This document shows, piece after piece, positions 2,780 through 16,891 of a stretch of 62,562 bases of DNA. The DNA comes from a virus. Made by a program: the position numbers and the translations under genes. Location: UHGV virus genome UHGV-0106067, one strand, 5' to 3'. Under the pieces are notes generated by a model. It saw nothing but the letters and a program-made list of their open reading frames with translations, was not told the origin of the DNA and ran no database searches. Every line of letters starts with the position of its first letter. The first letter of the stretch is position 1.

Positions 2780-2809
2780 GCTCGCGCCTCCCGGCGCGGG
2801 CTTTTTTTG
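2780..2809 (+). terminator. intrinsic terminator (plus-strand orientation)
   Basis: hairpin cgcgcc-tccc-ggcgcg followed by gggcttttttt. Confidence 0.45.
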
Positions 2810-2812
2810 CAT

Positions 2813-2839
2813 GTAAAAAGGCCCCTGCGATGAGGGGCC
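2813..2839 (-). terminator. intrinsic terminator downstream of R-M operon
   Basis: hairpin ggcccct-gcgatg-aggggcc; on minus strand followed by ttttta. Confidence 0.5.
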
Positions 2840-3211
2840 TGAGAGTATTACCTGGTTTCAGTTAACTGCATAGTGCCGGGTGCCTCCCGGTGAGTTCAGC
2901 CCGGTGCCACCGAACCCGCGTCTTTCACATTGCCTGTGACATTAAAAATGCCAGCCCGCACCAGCCGCCCCGCCGCTGAGGGGGATTCACCATGCGTTGC
3001 GATTTTTAACAAATTCACCGCCAGCCAGACAATCATCAACTTGCTGAATTGTGAGGTATTTAAAAATTTCCCCGATTAACTGATACCCTGCTAACCACCT
3101 GTTGTTTTCTTTTTCAGCAACAAAAAAGCCCGCTCATCGGCGGATTCGGCTGCGTGGCAATGTAACCATTCTTATCATGATATGAGGATTTTTACGATTG
3201 TAAAATGTTTT

Positions 3212-4306
3212 TTAACTGACACCAGAATCATCATAACCGCGACTTGTTATAGCTTGCCTGTATGCGTTCATTTTGCGTTCTGCGTACTGGACAACATCTT
3301 TAATGACAAGCTTATGAACAACTGAAATAAGGTCATTTATATAACAAAAGTCAGGTGACTTATTTTTCACTGGCAACCAAATAACATCGTTCTTAATTTT
3401 TCTATTACTAACACTATCCCCCCATGAATATTTATGTGAAATAGACCTATAAATACATGAAATAATGCCCAAATAAGCAAACTTTGTCCTTCCATCCTCA
3501 TTGTTAACATAGAGTCGCAAATTATGACTGTCGTTTGAAAAAAAGTCTCGCTCCTGATAAGTTACAACGAATGTCTTACCACCAATAAAAATACAGTTCC
3601 CTTTTTCCAAGAGTGAGTCATCATAGGCGATATAAGAACTAACAGAGTTATTATCACGGCTAGCACAAAGATAAGGAACATCCCCACTATTTTCTATGAT
3701 GTCTCTAGACAATATGTTTCCTGTATTGCACACTGAGAATAACTCAGTAACAGGAAAGCCTGAAAATTCAATATTTTTAAAATGTTCCAGGATAAGATAA
3801 TCTTTTTCCGTTAGTTGGTAATCACTCAGCCCAGCAGCTATCAGGTATGCTTCCAGCTCTTCTATATGGGCCGCTTCCAGCTCTTCTATATAATTATCCA
3901 TAAAAAACCAGTCAATTTCATTATTTTTCACTGGTAATGAGATGAAATATTCTCCATCTCTGAGTTTGGAACTCGATAACTGTTGACCATAATTAAAACG
4001 CCCCTTTAAAGCTTTATTAATCATACTGGCAACATACAGTCCGCGCTTTGCATTAAAGTCGGACTTACTTGATTTTAATGTAAGAACATGCACCTTCATT
4101 TCTACGCTGGCACAATAAGGATGATAAAAAGCATCTCCAAAAAAATTAACGCTTATAAAATTTTCATAATGTCTTGCATCATCCATAAACTCGGTATCAA
4201 ACTCTCCGATGATACCGTTTTGATCGCTCTTTGCTGAAACACGTTTGATTTTGCCTGGTTTTAATCTTCCTGAGGAGATAAGCGAGCCTGTGCTCACATA
4301 GAACAA
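3212..4306 (-). CDS. restriction-modification specificity (S) subunit, two target-recognition domains
   Basis: 364 aa; two internal repeats each ending in an LPVKN...D-type segment (FISLPVKNNEIDWFF and VIWLPVKNKSPDFCYINDL) as in HsdS/BcgIB-type subunits; AT-rich; directly downstream of methyltransferase-nuclease gene. Confidence 0.5.
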   Translation of the reverse strand: MFYVSTGSLISSGRLKPGKIKRVSAKSDQNGIIGEFDTEFMDDARHYENFISVNFFGDAFYHPYCASVEMKVHVLTLKSSKSDFNAKRGLYVASMINKALKGRFNYGQQLSSSKLRDGEYFISLPVKNNEIDWFFMDNYIEELEAAHIEELEAYLIAAGLSDYQLTEKDYLILEHFKNIEFSGFPVTELFSVCNTGNILSRDIIENSGDVPYLCASRDNNSVSSYIAYDDSLLEKGNCIFIGGKTFVVTYQERDFFSNDSHNLRLYVNNEDGRTKFAYLGIISCIYRSISHKYSWGDSVSNRKIKNDVIWLPVKNKSPDFCYINDLISVVHKLVIKDVVQYAERKMNAYRQAITSRGYDDSGVS

Positions 4307-4365
4307 ATCGCCAATCCTGAACTCTCCCCACTCAACGCTTCTTAATTTATCGCTGAGCGGGGAAT

Positions 4366-6451: not shown

Positions 6452-6635
6452 CTGGCAGCATAAAATCATCCTTTTATGAAAATCAACGATTTTTGAGCAC
6501 TCGCACACAAAAAATTACCGCATTGGTTGCAACGACAACCTGCATTTTGCGGAGCATATGACAAATAAAGTACGGGTGCGTTGAGGATGCCAGACACATC
6601 AGAGGTGGCGGGAGATTACTCCCCTGCCTGGTCTC

Positions 6636-6791
6636 TTACTTCTCAGATTCGTAGTCTACGAAGACAGCGACCTCCGTCTGGCCGGTTCGGATTCGTACCT
6701 CGCAGAAGTCTTTCCTCGTTACCAGTGCTATCACTACGACGGTAATACAGATGACGATCAGGGCGATTAACATCGCCTTTTGCTGCTTCAT
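6636..6791 (-). CDS. hok: Hok/Gef-family type I toxin (HokC/HokD-like)
   Basis: 51-aa ORF MKQQKAMLIALIVICITVVVIALVTRKDLCEVRIRTGQTEVAVFVDYESEK; SD aaggaga upstream; absent from ORF track (<60 aa). Confidence 0.75.
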   Translation of the reverse strand: MKQQKAMLIALIVICITVVVIALVTRKDFCEVRIRTGQTEVAVFVDYESEK

Positions 6792-6966
6792 AGCCTACTT
6801 CTCCTTGCCTTTCGGCACGTAAGAGGCTAACCTAAGTTTGTAAGTCATAGATTTGGCCTCAGATTAATGTTAAGCGTCCTGCAAGACGCGTAATGTTAAC
6901 TGGGGCTTTTCTCTGTCTGCCTTACGGCTGCATGCCCGAGGCAGACAGCCTCAAGCACCCGCAGCT

Positions 6967-6994
6967 ATTCTACAGTAAAAACTCGCGCTTTCAA
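6967..6994 (-). promoter_or_regulatory. candidate late promoter (pR-prime-like) immediately downstream of Q
   Basis: minus-strand TTGAAA-16 nt-TAGAAT; -35 overlaps Q stop codon; inverted repeat ctgtctgcc/ggcagacag just downstream could be part of a qut-like element. Confidence 0.45.
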
Positions 6995-7416
6995 TTTCCC
7001 GCACGTCCGGCAAACTGACTGGCCTGTGATCCTGATGGTTCACGCTCAACGTACCTGTCCATTTCCAGCTTTACTCCCTGCATGATCAACATCCCCTCAA
7101 TAACACCTTCTGCTTTTTGCAGTACCCGCCCGGCCCAGCAATCAGAGCGCCCATGCTTACGGCCCAGTGACATAAGCGTCATCCCGAACACATAATAATC
7201 ATACAGAAAATCATGCAAATCGCTGTTGTTGACGTTCAGTTGCGCCATGCAATTGCTGATAATCAGCGCATCGTCATCGGTACACTGAGGCCGTGATTTA
7301 ACCTTTGACGGGATCAGCCCCTTAAATCCGGCGGCAATGGGCGACCAGCTCACATCCTCATGATTATTGGCCACCCATGCGCCCCAGCGTTCAAGCACCT
7401 GCTGAATATCACGCAT
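6991..7416 (-). CDS. Q: late antiterminator Q (933W/phage-21 type)
   Basis: [45 protein letters not shown] matches recalled Q of Stx phages; position after NinH; start placed at internal Met of 6991..7521 ORF. Confidence 0.65.
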
Positions 7417-12219: not shown

Positions 12220-12320
12220 CGCCATAACTGACTCCTTCAAAATGCCCATATCATTACGCACAGTTATTAAAATGTCAACACCGCAGATATTTCATTACAT
12301 ATAACCAAAGGTGATATGGT

Positions 12321-13034
12321 ATGAACATGAAAAAGAAACCGTTAACCCCTGAGCAACTGGAAGACGCCAAGCGTCTGAAAAGTATTTTTAACGCTAAAAA
12401 GAAAGAGTTAGGCCTGTCGCAGGAATCATTAGCCTATGAATTAGGTGTTACCCAAAGCGCTGTTAATCAGCTAATGGCTGGCATCAACGCCATAAATGCC
12501 AGCCACGCAGCACAGCTTGCTAAGATACTGAATGTAAAGGTCGGAGATTTCAGTCCCAGCCTGGCAAAATCTATTGCAGAAATGGCGCTCGCAATTGAAG
12601 AGCCATTAACTCGTGTCCCCGCTTACGAATATCCGTTACTCTCCTGCGTACAAGCTGGCGCATTCTCAATGGATGATATTTCGTACACCGCAAAAGATGC
12701 GATTAAATGGATCTCCACCACCACAAAAGCCAGTGACAGGTCGTTCTGGCTGGAGGTCAAGGGGCATTCAATGACCGCACCGCAGGGTGGTAAACCCAGC
12801 TTCCCTGAAGGTATGCTGATACTCGTTGACCCTGAACGGGAAATCGAGGATGGCGATTTTTGCGTGGCCCGAATGAACGGCGATGAATTTACCTTCAAAC
12901 GATTCATTCGTGAGAGCGGTAAAGCGTACCTGGAGCCGCTCAACCCACGATTCGACATGATTGAGTGTAACGAAAACTGCCAGTTTGTCGGAAAGGTCAT
13001 CAAATCGCAGTGGAATGATGATACTTTTGATTGA
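12321..13034 (+). CDS. cI: CI repressor (lambda CI-like, HTH + S24 LexA-like autopeptidase domain)
   Basis: near-colinear with lambda CI along its whole length ([20 protein letters not shown]... ; [13 protein letters not shown]... ; GMLILVDPE); recognition helix differs. Confidence 0.9.
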
Positions 13035-13322: not shown

Positions 13323-13471
13323 AATACGTTCAGACAGAATTTTTGGCCTGTTGTTAACTAGTAACCTGAAGAGACGTTTGGGTGATGTTTGGGTGATTTT
13401 AGTTGTGATTAACGAAAACTATGGTGCAACATCTTATAGTAAATTGTTAATATAACAAGGTATTGTATCAA

Positions 13472-14374
13472 ATGAGCCAAAATCTTGATTCAACACTAGA
13501 AACATACATCTCTTGGCAGTTAGAGCAATTTAAGGATAAATTTTTCCCAAACTGTGACGTCATTGCGTACTACGGTGGCATCTTTCCATGGTCAAAAGAA
13601 GTTTACCAGCCAAAACTTGAAGCTATTGGTGAGATGGCTAACAGTCGTACCAATAAATTTCTTGTTATTATACTCAATACAAACGGTGGTTCTGTTGAGT
13701 CTGTAGAAAAAATGGTAGAAATTACAAGGCATTTCTACCAAGAGGTATATTTTATCATTCCAGACATGGCTATGTCGGCAGGTACAATATGGTGCATGTC
13801 TGGAGATAAAATTTACATGGACTATGCTTCTTCATTAGGACCTATTGATCCTCAAGTGCAATCGTCGGACGGTAAATGGGTTCCCGCTTTGGGATACCTT
13901 GATAAAGTTGAAGAAATGATTAATAAATCCAGAGAAGGAACCATTACCCAAGCTGAACTGATGATGCTTAGTCAGTTAGATCTGGCGCACTTGCGGAGAT
14001 ATGAGCAAGCCAGAGAACTATCAATAGACTTGCTTAAGAAATGGCTTGTGGAGTATAAATTTAGAGAGTGGACAGTTCATCAGGGTAACACAAAACGAGG
14101 AAAGCTAGTTACCAAGAGGGAAAAGGAAGCGAGGGCTAAAATGATCGCTACCGCTCTTAGTGACAACGGAAAGTGGCATTCTCACGGAAGAACGATAGGA
14201 ATAAACACTCTTATCAATGACTTAAGGATAAAAGTAGAAGACTTTACATACGATAAAGATTTTAGCATGGCGTTAAAAAATATACATAACGTCATTAATG
14301 AATACATGTATAAAACAAATCGACAGGTTCTTGTTCTGTCTTCTTTCCCTTTTCCAGAACAAAGTGAGTCATAA
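13472..14374 (+). CDS. SDH-family (ClpP/S49-like) serine protease
   Basis: about 300 aa; MSQNLDSTLETYISWQLEQF...NTNGGSVES...MAMSAGTIWCMSGDKIYM pattern recalled for serine dehydrogenase proteinase family; ATG at 13472 preferred over TTG at 13463. Confidence 0.55.
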   Translation: MSQNLDSTLETYISWQLEQFKDKFFPNCDVIAYYGGIFPWSKEVYQPKLEAIGEMANSRTNKFLVIILNTNGGSVESVEKMVEITRHFYQEVYFIIPDMAMSAGTIWCMSGDKIYMDYASSLGPIDPQVQSSDGKWVPALGYLDKVEEMINKSREGTITQAELMMLSQLDLAHLRRYEQARELSIDLLKKWLVEYKFREWTVHQGNTKRGKLVTKREKEARAKMIATALSDNGKWHSHGRTIGINTLINDLRIKVEDFTYDKDFSMALKNIHNVINEYMYKTNRQVLVLSSFPFPEQSES

Positions 14375-14545
14375 ATGAACAAAGACAAATCCCTGACACA
14401 ACAAGTGGAAGAAATACTTAGCAAGCAAAAAGTTAGCGAGCAAGGAAAAATGATTCAATCATTAAAGAACAGGGGCTTGATCAACAAGCCTGTTTTTACT
14501 TTGGCTTATGGACCAGATATTACAACCTGCCAAATGCACCAATAA
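14375..14545 (+). CDS. small hypothetical protein, start abutting protease stop
   Basis: 56-aa ORF MNKDKSLTQQVEEILSKQKV...; ATG immediately follows TAA of protease gene; ends just before terminator. Confidence 0.25.
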   Translation: MNKDKSLTQQVEEILSKQKVSEQGKMIQSLKNRGLINKPVFTLAYGPDITTCQMHQ

Positions 14546-14661: not shown

Positions 14662-15006
14662 TTAAGCCCCTGTGTGATGGTTGACTTCTTTTTCCAGCGC
14701 CTTATTAACAAAGGCGTTCAGTGATAAATCTTCTTCCATCGCCATTTCTGCTACCCGACGATGCAGTTCTGGATCAAGCCTGACGTTAAACACACCTTTA
14801 AACGGGGTATCAGGCTCCTTTCCATCCTCCACACAAGACTGTAAATACAGCTCAACCGATGTCTTAAACTCCTGTTCCAGTTCAGCTAATGTAGAAGCCT
14901 CATAAGTTACCAGGTCTCGAATAAACGCCAGTTTTCCGTACAGGATATTATTTTCAAAATCTGGTTCTACTGTACCTAAATACCCTTTATATTTTAGATG
15001 CTTCAT
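14662..15006 (-). CDS. hicB: HicB-family antitoxin
   Basis: MKHLKYKGYLGTVEPDFENNILYGKLAFIRDLVTYEA... with C-terminal RHH-like segment SLNAFVNKALEKE. Confidence 0.7.
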   Translation of the reverse strand: MKHLKYKGYLGTVEPDFENNILYGKLAFIRDLVTYEASTLAELEQEFKTSVELYLQSCVEDGKEPDTPFKGVFNVRLDPELHRRVAEMAMEEDLSLNAFVNKALEKEVNHHTGA

Positions 15007-15257
15007 AATACCCCAGCCTCTTTCAGATTCTGTTTAATCGCTTTCAGCGTTCCACCTTTAATATAACTTTCTGGATGTGGGCGATGCATTAATATGGTGT
15101 GGTTGATTTCAGCATTGAAAAACCGCACTCTTGAGCCCTGCATTTCCTTTTTGACATCTCCCAGAGAGGAAAACAAAACGACCAGCTCATCCCATTCAAA
15201 CGTTTTTTTACTGTTTAAAAACTTTTCCAGTAGCTTATCTGCTTTCCCCATACCCAC
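15003..15257 (-). CDS. hicA: HicA-family toxin
   Basis: 84 aa, GSRVRFF...HRPHP...GTLKAIKQNLKEAGVL; 4-bp overlap with hicB. Confidence 0.6.
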   Translation of the reverse strand: MGMGKADKLLEKFLNSKKTFEWDELVVLFSSLGDVKKEMQGSRVRFFNAEINHTILMHRPHPESYIKGGTLKAIKQNLKEAGVL

Positions 15258-15502
15258 ATAATCTCATCTTCGCTACATTGCAACTAATTATAGTTACAGG
15301 CAGTGTTTTTGTCAAAAGCCACCAAGCCCGCTGGGTTCTCTTTGACTGTTCGCTGCTTTTCCTGGTGTTATCCGGGGGCTTTTCCCTCACGCCAAATCTC
15401 ACACAGAGTAACCGGCCCGCGCCGGCTTTTCTTTGACCGCACTCCGCTAACCGCCCCCTTGAAAAATAAATCACTTTAAAAATCAGTTAAGTAATATTTT
15501 TT

Positions 15503-15531
15503 TGACCCCAATAACCACCAACGGTATTTAC
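15503..15531 (+). promoter_or_regulatory. pL-like early-left promoter with operator half-sites
   Basis: TTGACC-17 nt-TATTTA resembling lambda pL; flanking CACCGC/CGGTG motifs similar to those between cI and cro. Confidence 0.5.
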
Positions 15532-15577
15532 ACAAAAATCACCGCAAGTTATATTTATTTCAAGCCAGAAACATCGC

Positions 15578-15592
15578 GCCCTTACACAGGGC
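15578..15592 (+). promoter_or_regulatory. boxB-like hairpin (nutL candidate)
   Basis: GCCCT-TACAC-AGGGC about 45 nt downstream of predicted pL start; lambda boxB is GCCCT-GAAAA-AGGGC. Confidence 0.35.
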
Positions 15593-16243
15593 TACATAAA
15601 TCAGTCGTACGGCGCGACTTAACCCGCCGCAAAATGCTCTTTAACAATCTGGAGCTTTACAGCGTCAATGACCTGTTTAGACCCCTACACGTAAACGTGC
15701 TGTATCATCGGGTGCGATCCGGTCGATGAGAGAGTATCCCCGCGCGAGAGCGAGAACGGCGTGAGAACGGGCAACACTGGCAGGAAGTTGGCGCTGACCA
15801 ATACAGGGAATGTTTTGGGGTGTGGTGAAGGGTTCATGGACGGGAATATGTCGCACGTAAAGCGGCGAGGCCCGAGGGACTATTGCTGAAGATAAGTAGG
15901 CCGAATCGGGTCGAAATGGGTCTCCCACCTGCCACATCGCCAAAGCATTTCCGAGAAAGGACGGTATTGACTGCGTGTGATGTCGGGGCTATATTTGGCG
16001 AACACCTCATAAAACGGGTGTCGGGATTCTCACCCCGCTGACAATCGAGGCGATACAGACGCGCCAGCGTCTTTTTTTGTATCGACATACACGCACATCT
16101 TATCAATGGTGGGCTGTATGGGGCCGACTTCGGTCGGGCTGGTTCCCTTGATTGCCAGTTGTGAGAACCCTGTACAGTCCACCGCCAGCGAGCTTCTCAC
16201 CTCCTGCGGTGGTTATTAATCACCAATCAAGGAGGCTGCCATT

Positions 16244-16891
16244 ATGGCTACTATCCCAGTCCTTTCTCAACCTGAAATCACCATTTCCAATGGTCGCGTT
16301 ATCACAACGTCTATTGCTATTGCTGAATTTTTTGACAAGCGGCACGACGACGTTTTAAAAAAAATCCGATTGATGGATTGTTCTACGGAATTTAACGCCC
16401 GCAATTTTTCGGACGTTACCTACACCGACGCCAAAGGCGAACAACGCCCAATGTACCAAATCACCAAAAACGGATTCGTTTTCCTGGTGATGGGGTTCAC
16501 TGGCAAAAAAGCCGCCGCTTTCAAAGAAGCCTACATTGCTGAATTCGATCGCATGGAAAAACAACTATGGGAACAGAAACAACTGGCCCTGTCTTCTCCT
16601 GCGATGAATATCAATTTCCCTTTGTCGTGGTTTTCAGAGCATCACCCCTATGCCACGATGAACTATGTTGATCGCAAGGTTATCAGCCTTGATGCTTCCG
16701 TGCTCTTCGATATGCCAAGCCCAACTATGCGCATCCTCAACGAGCTACACAGCAAGGGCTATAACGTCGACGCAGCTGTCGCTGAATTTAACGCCTTCAA
16801 ACATCTGACGGAAGAAATGCGCCGTAAATTGCTGGATATTTCCCGCACATCGGAAAAGTCTTCCCGCTTTGGTTTCAACGTTAATCTTTAA
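16244..16891 (+). CDS. Rha-family phage regulatory protein
   Basis: 215 aa; strong SD aaggagg; recalled Rha-like N-terminal pattern. Confidence 0.6.
   Translation: MATIPVLSQPEITISNGRVITTSIAIAEFFDKRHDDVLKKIRLMDCSTEFNARNFSDVTYTDAKGEQRPMYQITKNGFVFLVMGFTGKKAAAFKEAYIAEFDRMEKQLWEQKQLALSSPAMNINFPLSWFSEHHPYATMNYVDRKVISLDASVLFDMPSPTMRILNELHSKGYNVDAAVAEFNAFKHLTEEMRRKLLDISRTSEKSSRFGFNVNL

Follow-up and report, generated by a model that had tools for sequence, protein, structure and literature searches.

Among described phage systems, several offer points of comparison for the locus reported here. In the nutL/N leader of lambda, the early left promoter pL with its operators (OL) is followed by boxA, an RNA structure, a long hairpin and the ribosome site of the first gene. 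In the immI region of P1 and P7 (c4-icd-ant; Rfam RF01695 and RF03163), the antisense RNA C4 carries two segments (a′ and b′) that match targets located upstream (a1 and b1) and downstream (a2 and b2), and b2 covers the ribosome-binding site of the gene that comes first. In Gifsy-1, a promoter, the small RNA IsrK with its leaky terminator, a stable processed RNA covering a small "ORF" (open reading frame) and an antirepressor-like gene follow one another (Hershko-Shalev et al. 2016, PMC4825925). The present work concerns the virus genome UHGV-0106067 (62,562 nucleotides (nt), the whole of this stretch being called the window below) and more precisely its interval 15258–16243, located just upstream of a gene of the Rha family (rha). 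This interval is probably the pL leader of a lambdoid prophage of the Eru1/Oslovirus Shiga toxin (Stx) type, devoid of the antiterminator gene N and made by mosaic recombination of four RNA-level elements. From 5′ to 3′ on the + strand, to which all features below belong unless stated otherwise, these are a CI-operated pL, a phi80-type nutL made of boxA and a six-helix RNA, a homologue of the N-leader hairpin, and an IsrK-C4-rha cassette.

The original prediction had described the interval as a GC-rich and untranslated leader of about 0.7 kb. The G+C content is indeed 53–55.5% over 15600–16199 compared to 39–48% in the flanks, and none of the six-frame ORFs, which had been taken for noise, has a credible Pfam match: searches on all seven ORFs of the interval gave nothing convincing, the weak match to Phage_ASH corresponding to a translation of the C4 gene. 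Both the view of the interval as structured regulatory RNA instead of coding sequence and that of a CI-controlled early left leader without N were borne out. However, the interval is not a single leader, since a second transcription unit is predicted to begin near 16002, downstream of a conserved promoter (15967–15995). A scan for tRNA and tmRNA found none, and a sensitive Rfam scan of 15000–16500 (E up to 10) retrieved nothing but IsrK, C4 and noise.

The covariance-model scan suggested by the original prediction thus matched two known RNA families, both above their gathering scores. The IsrK-type RNA (16002–16079) matches RF01394 over 16002–16077 with 61 bits (gathering score 50), and the C4-type antisense RNA (16102–16189) matches RF01695 at full length (model positions 1–87) with 77.1 bits (gathering score 45). 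The promoter of this second unit, TTGACT-17-TATATT (10/12 matches in the consensus scan), has a predicted start at about 16002, i.e., the first base of the IsrK match. A hairpin followed by a T7 tract had been noticed near 16060–16080 as the possible end of the leader; it is present, and the terminator scan places it at 16057–16079, but it is the intrinsic terminator of IsrK and not the end of a leader. Both the promoter at this position and the terminator are conserved with IsrK in 10 phages, including N15. IsrK contains the sites a1 (UUCUCAC, 16027–16033) and b1 (CAAUCGAGG, 16043–16051), and C4 contains b′ (CCUUGAUUG, 16146–16154) and a′ (GUGAGAA, 16161–16167). Two further sites lie in the 5′ untranslated region of rha (16194–16243): a2 (UUCUCAC, 16194–16200) and b2 (CAAUCAAGG, 16224–16232), the latter overlapping the Shine-Dalgarno sequence AAGGAGG (16229–16235). 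The complementarity of C4 to a2 and b2 is exact, and b′ pairs with b1 using one G-U. This a1/b1–a′/b′–a2/b2 layout is that of P1 immI, in which the a1/b1 leader is the equivalent of IsrK. The gene that follows, rha (16244–16891), occupies the position of N and encodes a 215-amino-acid (aa) protein of the antirepressor-type Rha family (Pfam Phage_pRha, E = 1e-30), whose homologues commonly bear the annotation antirepressor or Rha. Assignment to the C4 class relies on the covariance match, two target-complementary segments, one of them for the ribosome site, and the upstream a1/b1 duplicates, and assignment to the IsrK class on the covariance match, the promoter of its own and the Rho-independent terminator.

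The tandem of IsrK followed by C4, with a gap of about 25 nt, was found in nine related loci: F039, P13374, PA8, JNE122398, phiP27, Stx1_14040, the P1-like D6, phi296 and N15. In phi296, the IsrK region additionally matches RF03163, the family described as "a1, b1 targets of C4". Site a covaries three ways (IsrK loop, C4 a′ and a2) with eight sequence variants, and site b covaries too. For example, the set UUCUCAC (IsrK loop), GUGAGAA (C4) and UUCUCAC (3′ of C4) of the window becomes UUAGGAC, GUCCUAA and UUAGGAC in F039 and GCUAC, GUAGC and GCUAC in P13374; further matched sets occur in phiP27, Stx1_14040, D6, phi296 and N15, and both a and b sites are compensated across nine relatives. Such specificity variants kept by compensatory changes parallel the heteroimmunity of P1 and P7. 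The window differs from P1 immI in three respects: it has no icd-like gene, so that C4 would act directly on a Rha-family gene; its a1/b1 segment is a terminated small RNA, IsrK; and the cassette belongs to a lambdoid pL operon instead of the P1 plasmid prophage.

How the cassette works can be proposed by analogy with P1, N15, P4 and Gifsy-1. In a lysogen, the cassette promoter would be active and most transcripts would end at the IsrK terminator; those that read through would be processed into C4, which would pair with a2 and b2 and block the translation of rha. IsrK, which bears copies of the C4 target sites, would compete for C4 and may also be the site where C4 promotes termination. N15 shares the IsrK and C4 tandem with promoter and terminator, its anti-immunity region reportedly having the order Pa, CA RNA, icd/antA. 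In N15 and in P4 (CI RNA, seqA/B/C), as proposed here, a processed small RNA controls the expression of the antirepressor, but it is reported to act mainly via premature termination. In Gifsy-1, read-through of the IsrK terminator in the isrK-orf45(STnc1160)-anrP unit gives a translationally silent mRNA, the antirepressor-like gene being silent by default, and it is the short form of IsrK that turns the antirepressor on, acting in trans; the authors point to the parallel with P4 seqA/CI RNA (PMC4825925). This activation of translation in trans by IsrK, like its binding to Hfq, has been demonstrated in Gifsy-1 only (PMC4825925). The two loci also differ by their location, downstream of antQ in Gifsy-1 and downstream of pL in the window, and by the 37-aa ORF covering C4 (16106–16219), which corresponds to "orf45" of Gifsy-1 and has a weak Pfam Phage_ASH (PF10554) match, but which stops before rha in the window.

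In other phages, this frame is longer. P13374 has an annotated "regulatory protein" of 261 aa (3522–4307 of locus L007) that reads through C4 into rha and whose first 56 residues match Phage_ASH, and F039 has an equivalent 261-aa frame (6519–7304 of locus L001, i.e., element end 6481 plus an offset of 203–988). Since the Phage_ASH matches lie over C4 genes, the Ash "protein family" looks like the translation of C4/CI-type RNA genes. Another RNA family, sRNA-Xcc1 (RF02221, 79.6 bits), matches P13374 at 4441–4524 of L007, inside an ORF annotated "antB2"; this ORF is flanked by the Rha gene and by a gene with an ORF6N domain, to which the record gives the label "antitermination".

Upstream of the cassette, the window was compared with phi80, as annotated in GenBank M11919 and JX871397. 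Over positions 15635–15951, it shares 95% identity with the pL leader of phi80 (M11919 698–1014), which bears the annotation "nutL regulatory signal", with a boxA at the same place and an identical 12-nt core hairpin, CACGTAAACGTG. The boxA of the window, TGCTCTTTAACAA (15635–15647), is an exact 13/13 match to the consensus boxA of the Escherichia coli rRNA (rrn) operons. The window has no other exact copy, both strands having been searched, and the minus strand carries none; by our own arithmetic, about 0.002 exact 13-mer matches would be expected in 125 kb. The fit to the consensus is better than in phi80, whose sequence at this position is TGCTTTTTA (annotated "nutL boxA"), and the lambda boxA is CGCTCTTA compared to the full rrn consensus of the window. 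Furthermore, boxA is found at the same distance in all 13 relatives that were retrieved without requiring it.

The phi80 record annotates only boxA and the 12-nt hairpin, but our analysis revealed in the window a 137-nt structure of six helices immediately 3′ of boxA (15660–15796). It consists of the helices P1 (15660–15667/15789–15796), P2 (15672–15677/15779–15784) and P3 (15683–15685/15769–15771), the P4 hairpin (15688–15699), which is the phi80 "nutL core", the P5 hairpin (15705–15729), and P6 with a nested GAGA-loop hairpin (15740–15759). The structure was derived from the copies described below and assessed on two alignments. In the MAFFT alignment A2 (20 sequences), 93.3% of the cells are in standard pairs, compared to 30–43% when the 3′ partners are slid by 1–3 columns, and 11 pairs are changed on both sides, compared to 1–4 in the slid controls. 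The corresponding values in alignment A3, which leans towards the structure since it was fitted to the model, are 95.8% compared to 30–42%, and 13 pairs compared to 0–4. None of 500 shuffles reached the covariation score in either alignment. Because G-U pairs are frequent, the structure can be placed on the + strand, i.e., the one transcribed from pL.

This boxA-linked RNA is highly conserved and widespread. The segment 15625–15815 is 99.5–100% identical in nearly all Oslovirus-type records, including JNE122398, although the IsrK/C4 cassette of the latter is only 71% identical. Identity is 95% in phi80, 93% in HK225 and in the Klebsiella phage KO-TP1, and 78%, over a shorter stretch, in the Edwardsiella phage Edno5. 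A scan of one genome per species with a pattern that excluded boxA retrieved copies in prophages of Enterobacter, Kluyvera and Escherichia, and a scan of IMG/VR added more divergent ones. The RNA is always located 12–15 nt after a boxA, and the covariance model built on it, R1, finds exactly one copy per phage. Searches with R1 in lambda, 933W, Louie and HK022 were negative, also after the filters had been switched off. In Rfam, the RNA is without a match up to E = 10. The pL leaders that contain it have unrelated immunity regions and unrelated first genes, and it is present in phi80, HK225 and prophages of Enterobacter, Klebsiella, Kluyvera and Edwardsiella, so that any function would extend beyond Stx phages. 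Beyond the annotation of the 12-nt "core" of phi80, a boxA-linked six-helix RNA of mostly N-less phages appears to be undescribed, and this motif could be added to RNA family databases. A second leader type, TTCAACTTAGAGGAGTGATTCCAATGAAGCACTAA, was observed just 3′ of the boxA-linked RNA in five loci from Enterobacter and Kluyvera prophages (L022, L026, L027, L029 and L034); a good Shine-Dalgarno sequence is part of it, as is a mini-ORF of three codons (Met-Lys-His-stop).

The leader of the window therefore has the boxA and the core hairpin of a phi80-type nutL, but it has no homologue of the cognate phi80 N. Tblastn searches with the N proteins of lambda, 933W and phi80 found nothing in the whole window, and a scan of all ORFs for an arginine-rich N-terminal motif gave no candidate in the pL operon, in agreement with the lack of an arginine-rich N ORF noticed initially. 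Compared to the lambda leader, the window shows a 137-nt multi-helix RNA in place of the 15-nt boxB, no N and no nutR downstream of cro: the minus strand carries no boxA, the R1 copy is the only one of the window, and no nutR-like second copy of boxA or of the RNA was found either in the window or in the 24–46 kb part of phi80. Likewise, phi80 N is absent from 33 of the 35 element-bearing loci. From one of these phages to another, the gene that follows the leader is completely different, the first ORFs being small and diverse, and no protein family is common to all 35 loci, the commonest ones (Kil, a 93-aa protein and RecT) being present in at most 15.

In rrn leaders, boxB precedes boxA. Like rrn operons and CRISPR arrays (PMC7665894), the window has a consensus boxA placed early in a long untranslated transcript, here of about 680 nt, and, as in the rrn order, a hairpin precedes it; in CRISPR arrays, boxA shields long untranslated RNA from Rho (PMC7665894). 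It differs in that its boxA is phage-encoded, controlled by CI and followed by a conserved structured RNA of a kind that rrn leaders do not have; a boxC was not identified in the window leader. In the simplest interpretation, boxA would serve to keep the untranslated pL transcript of about 680 nt alive. Once CI is inactivated, polymerases leaving pL would acquire NusB/NusE and other Nus factors at boxA, and the folded RNA next to it may assist. The boxA complex would then protect from Rho the RNA extending from the predicted pL start to the ATG of rha. The IsrK terminator is the earliest strong one that pL polymerases meet on their strand; modified polymerases may also pass it and continue into rha, kil, recT and exo, while those that start at the internal promoter, being unmodified, would terminate.

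Going further, we suggest with reserve that boxA and the six-helix RNA (15635–15796) could form an undescribed phage element for processive antitermination, a sort of "giant boxB" that would use host Nus factors and no N. If so, this element would make the pL polymerase resistant to both Rho and the IsrK terminator. It would explain early left expression in N-less Stx phages (including the type of the O104:H4 outbreak phage) and in the phi80 and HK225 relatives, and would enable the phage to tell transcripts made from pL apart from those started at the internal IsrK promoter. Such a protein-independent early left antiterminator, which would be functionally analogous to HK022 put or the rrn leader, is a possibility that we regard as tentative. 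Its conservation with compensatory changes, its constant distance from boxA and its occurrence in leaders with unrelated immunity and first genes argue for it, as do the rarity of phi80-N homologues (two of the 35 loci) and the strong sense-strand intrinsic terminators that about half of these loci have within 1.5 kb. Conversely, the RNA shows no similarity to put by BLAST or covariance model, it is present in a single copy per phage with none in the pR operon, and an N-like protein is encoded as well in two of the loci that carry it, Edno5 and L059.

The comparison with HK022 deserves some detail, as a put-like RNA was one of the options initially envisaged. The put element consists of two stem-loops, is not known to need boxA or Nus factors and is present in both early operons. 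The window shares with it a candidate RNA-based and N-independent early antitermination in a lambdoid phage, but its RNA has six helices, is tied to boxA and occurs in the pL operon only. Neither BLAST similarity to the HK022 pL-nun region nor an R1 match in HK022, with filters on or off, was found, and the RNA, of which each phage has a single copy, does not belong to the put class. The idea of RNA-based antitermination keeps a candidate, which is a different, conserved and boxA-linked RNA.

An alternative is that an overlooked or unconventional antiterminator protein is the partner of the phi80-type nut RNA, either the small and fast-evolving product of a first gene or Rha itself. The phi80 annotation, which includes both N and a nutL bearing the same RNA, would fit this, as would the small and diverse first ORFs and an N-like ORF with an arginine-rich motif in Edno5. 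This explanation nevertheless seems improbable, given that no protein family is shared among the element-bearing loci, that the pL operon of the window has neither a homologue of phi80, lambda or 933W N nor an ORF with an arginine-rich motif, and that the first gene of the window encodes a 215-aa Rha-family protein that would be kept off by C4. The N-like ORFs themselves, at about 3780–4007 in Edno5 (locus L009) and about 9295–9381 in L059, have an N-like arginine-rich N-terminus (MNSRQRRAMRYRA...), match 933W N weakly and lie about 0.6–1 kb downstream of the boxA-linked RNA. A strict anticorrelation of this RNA with N was rejected on account of these two loci.

The third element of the leader, located between the boxA-linked RNA and the cassette, bears on the fate of N. 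It is a long hairpin (15806–15952, fold z-score −4.3), closed at its base by a stem of about 21 bp, and it can be aligned with lambda, Louie, 933W and phi80. In lambda, Louie and 933W, the stem to which this base stem aligns stops right in front of the N Shine-Dalgarno sequence. The lambda counterpart is the RNase III-sensitive N-leader hairpin. Positions 15814–15945 are 92% identical to the 933W segment located between nutL and N, and the matching phi80 leader stops 36 nt before the start of phi80 N. The homology with phi80 ends at the 3′ arm of the hairpin, about 15 nt before the cassette promoter. Since the homology stops exactly at the N Shine-Dalgarno sequence and an intact IsrK-C4-rha cassette follows, N was replaced by the cassette, as the alignments indicate, and not degraded.

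The other view, according to which N has decayed in place and a frameshifted pseudogene lies within 15560–16240, is rejected as extremely unlikely. The position does equal that of N in lambda-like phages, and the over-extended N annotation of phi315 overlaps the homologous leader. However, the homologous DNA of phi80, 933W and lambda is non-coding leader, IsrK and C4 fully account for the remaining interval, and the search for a frameshifted remnant by tblastn with the N proteins of lambda, 933W, phi80 and phi315 recovered no N-like stretch, the only hits being confined to a mis-annotated N-terminal extension. These phi315 N matches, which fall on leader sequence, were rejected as N remnants. 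As a separate observation, the base stem of the hairpin, of about 20 bp (GGGAAUGUUUUGGGGUG / CACNUCGCCAAAGCAUUUC), is kept in many phages (loci L007, L001, L018, L025, L028, L033 and L036) whose hairpin interiors are unrelated or deleted. Judging from these alignments, the N-leader hairpin seems to behave as a cassette site within a conserved stem.

Several observations weigh against the interpretation of the leader as a functional assembly of these elements. The promoters, RNA ends and processing sites are all predicted ones, and the role of Rha as an antirepressor is drawn from annotation and the Gifsy-1 analogy only. Antitermination by Nus factors and boxA is best documented against Rho, and read-through of an intrinsic terminator is our own assumption. 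The variation that underlies the covariation comes from about three lineages only and therefore reflects few independent substitution events. HK225 lacks the 3′ strand of helix P1. The coexistence of the RNA and of an N-like protein with an arginine-rich motif in Edno5 and L059 implies that the element is not strictly a substitute for N. Lastly, P13374 and F039 have lost the interior of the long hairpin (112 nt) and other prophages have exchanged it, the base stem being kept, which suggests that the N-leader hairpin part may be vestigial.

Some of these points would also suit a wholly vestigial leader, in which the nutL-like RNA and the N-leader hairpin would be functionless leftovers of a phi80-like ancestor that serve as "linker" homology for recombination, pL expression relying on leaky termination. 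Besides the incomplete helix of HK225 and the deleted hairpin interiors, the mosaic junctions on both sides of the segment are in line with it, and read-through of the Gifsy-1 IsrK terminator happens without such a leader (PMC4825925). We consider this unlikely, since the segment stays almost invariant in nearly all Oslovirus-type records while its flanks fall to 71% or are unrelated, since 11–13 base pairs were kept between genera by double substitutions, and since boxA is nearer to the consensus than that of phi80.

Regarding the beginning of the leader, the orientation of the neighboring genes is that of a lambdoid early left operon read from left to right, as indicated by their order and strands: cI (12321–13034, +) and cargo genes lie upstream of the interval and a cro-like gene diverges from cI, a minus-strand hicAB pair (14662–15257, Pfam HicA/HicB) is the immediate left neighbor, and rha, then kil-, recT- and exo-like genes (+) lie on the right. 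CI-operator-like sites, already noticed from the sequence, are supported. The OL region (15510–15554) contains a 19-bp near-palindrome, AAATCACCGCAAGTTATAT (15536–15554), which resembles the palindrome of OR, ATATAACCAAAGGTGATAT (12299–12317), as well as a weaker operator-like site, AATAACCACCAACGGTATT (15510–15528). The 19-bp sites of OR and OL are the only ones in the window with at most one mismatch to their common pattern, which was derived from these two sites. Furthermore, the CI protein of F039 is only 32% identical to that of the window in its N-terminal, DNA-binding domain compared to 95% in its C-terminal one, and both OR and OL of F039 carry another shared sequence, so the operator sequence changes along with the DNA-binding domain of CI. 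The annotated operators of phi80 have the same positions, over its −10 and −35 hexamers.

The pL promoter itself, TTTACA-17-TATATT (15527–15555, 10/12 matches in the consensus scan), has a predicted start near 15562. Its hexamers align with the annotated −35 and −10 of phi80 pL and with TTGACT/TATATT of the heteroimmune relative F039, and the conservation between phages of different immunity begins at about 15563, where a transcript from this promoter would begin. The promoter proposed originally, TTGACC-17-TATTTA, is indeed present at 15503–15531, where it overlaps the former on its upstream side, but it was not called by the consensus scan because its −10 hexamer ends in A. Altogether, the match between the OR and OL palindromes, the co-change in F039 and the alignments support the assignment of OL and pL, with the promoter shifted by 24 bp downstream.

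Two small hairpins, read from the sequence, lie between the predicted pL start and boxA: GCCCU-UACAC-AGGGC (15578–15592) and AGUCG-N7-CGACU (15603–15619). Both are kept in Oslovirus-type phages only, phi80-type leaders having another hairpin before boxA. The first one had been interpreted as a boxB. The hairpin exists, but this label is not supported: it is specific to one lineage, it is located about 42–43 nt upstream of boxA, its UACAC loop is unlike the lambda boxB loop (GAAAA/GAAGA), and 5-bp hairpins of this kind are no more frequent than expected by chance. No lambda-type boxB, i.e., a GNRA-like pentaloop within about 10 nt after boxA, was found in the leader, this place being occupied by the six-helix RNA.

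Close relatives of this region are found in Stx phages of the Sepvirinae/Oslovirus type (TL-2011c, P13374, PA2/PA8 and VT2phi_272) and in PhiR12_3, and the region is present in 668 of 5426 complete E. coli genomes. In highly virulent E. coli, the carriers of stx2a include phages of the TL-2011c, P13374 (O104:H4), PA2/PA8 and VT2phi_272 types, toxin release being governed by prophage induction, and it has been published that these phages have no N, CII or CIII. The lack of N in Eru1/Oslovirus Stx phages and the IsrK and C4 families are thus already known from the literature. This region is not discussed in the papers on PA2/PA8 or in those on the transcriptomes of phiO104 lysogens. The present analysis turns an "empty" 0.7 kb into defined parts that can be mutated: an antisense-RNA switch with identifiable specificity determinants, which would guard a putative antirepressor, and a consensus boxA associated with a conserved folded RNA, a candidate for early antitermination independent of N in these clinically important Stx phages.

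Upstream of OL, the terminator scan detected two terminator-like hairpins (15359–15387 and 15412–15434, +) that would end the transcription unit on the cI side, and the homology with related Stx phages starts at 15346 or 15412. These tandem hairpins are on the + strand although the adjacent hicAB lies on the opposite one; they probably correspond to the conserved end of the cI-cargo unit, similar to the annotated tM terminator of 933W, left in place after the insertion of hicAB. This toxin-antitoxin pair (14662–15315, −) sits between the cI-side cargo genes and OL and has a promoter with a perfect consensus, TTGACA-17-TATAAT (15315–15287, −). This version of the junction occurs in few E. coli genomes, most relatives having a restriction-modification pair there. 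Between cI and pL, the window also carries a 303-aa ORF for a ClpP-like serine protease of the SDH type (Pfam PF01972), directly followed by a 56-aa ORF (13463–14545, +); it occupies the position of lambda rexAB and may be a cargo or defence gene expressed in the lysogen. Lastly, on the pR/late side, Rfam matches to STnc100 (149 bits) and to the sok antitoxin RNA (118 bits) were found at 2809–3025 (−) and 6786–6960 (−), and the sok match implies a hok/sok killer locus.

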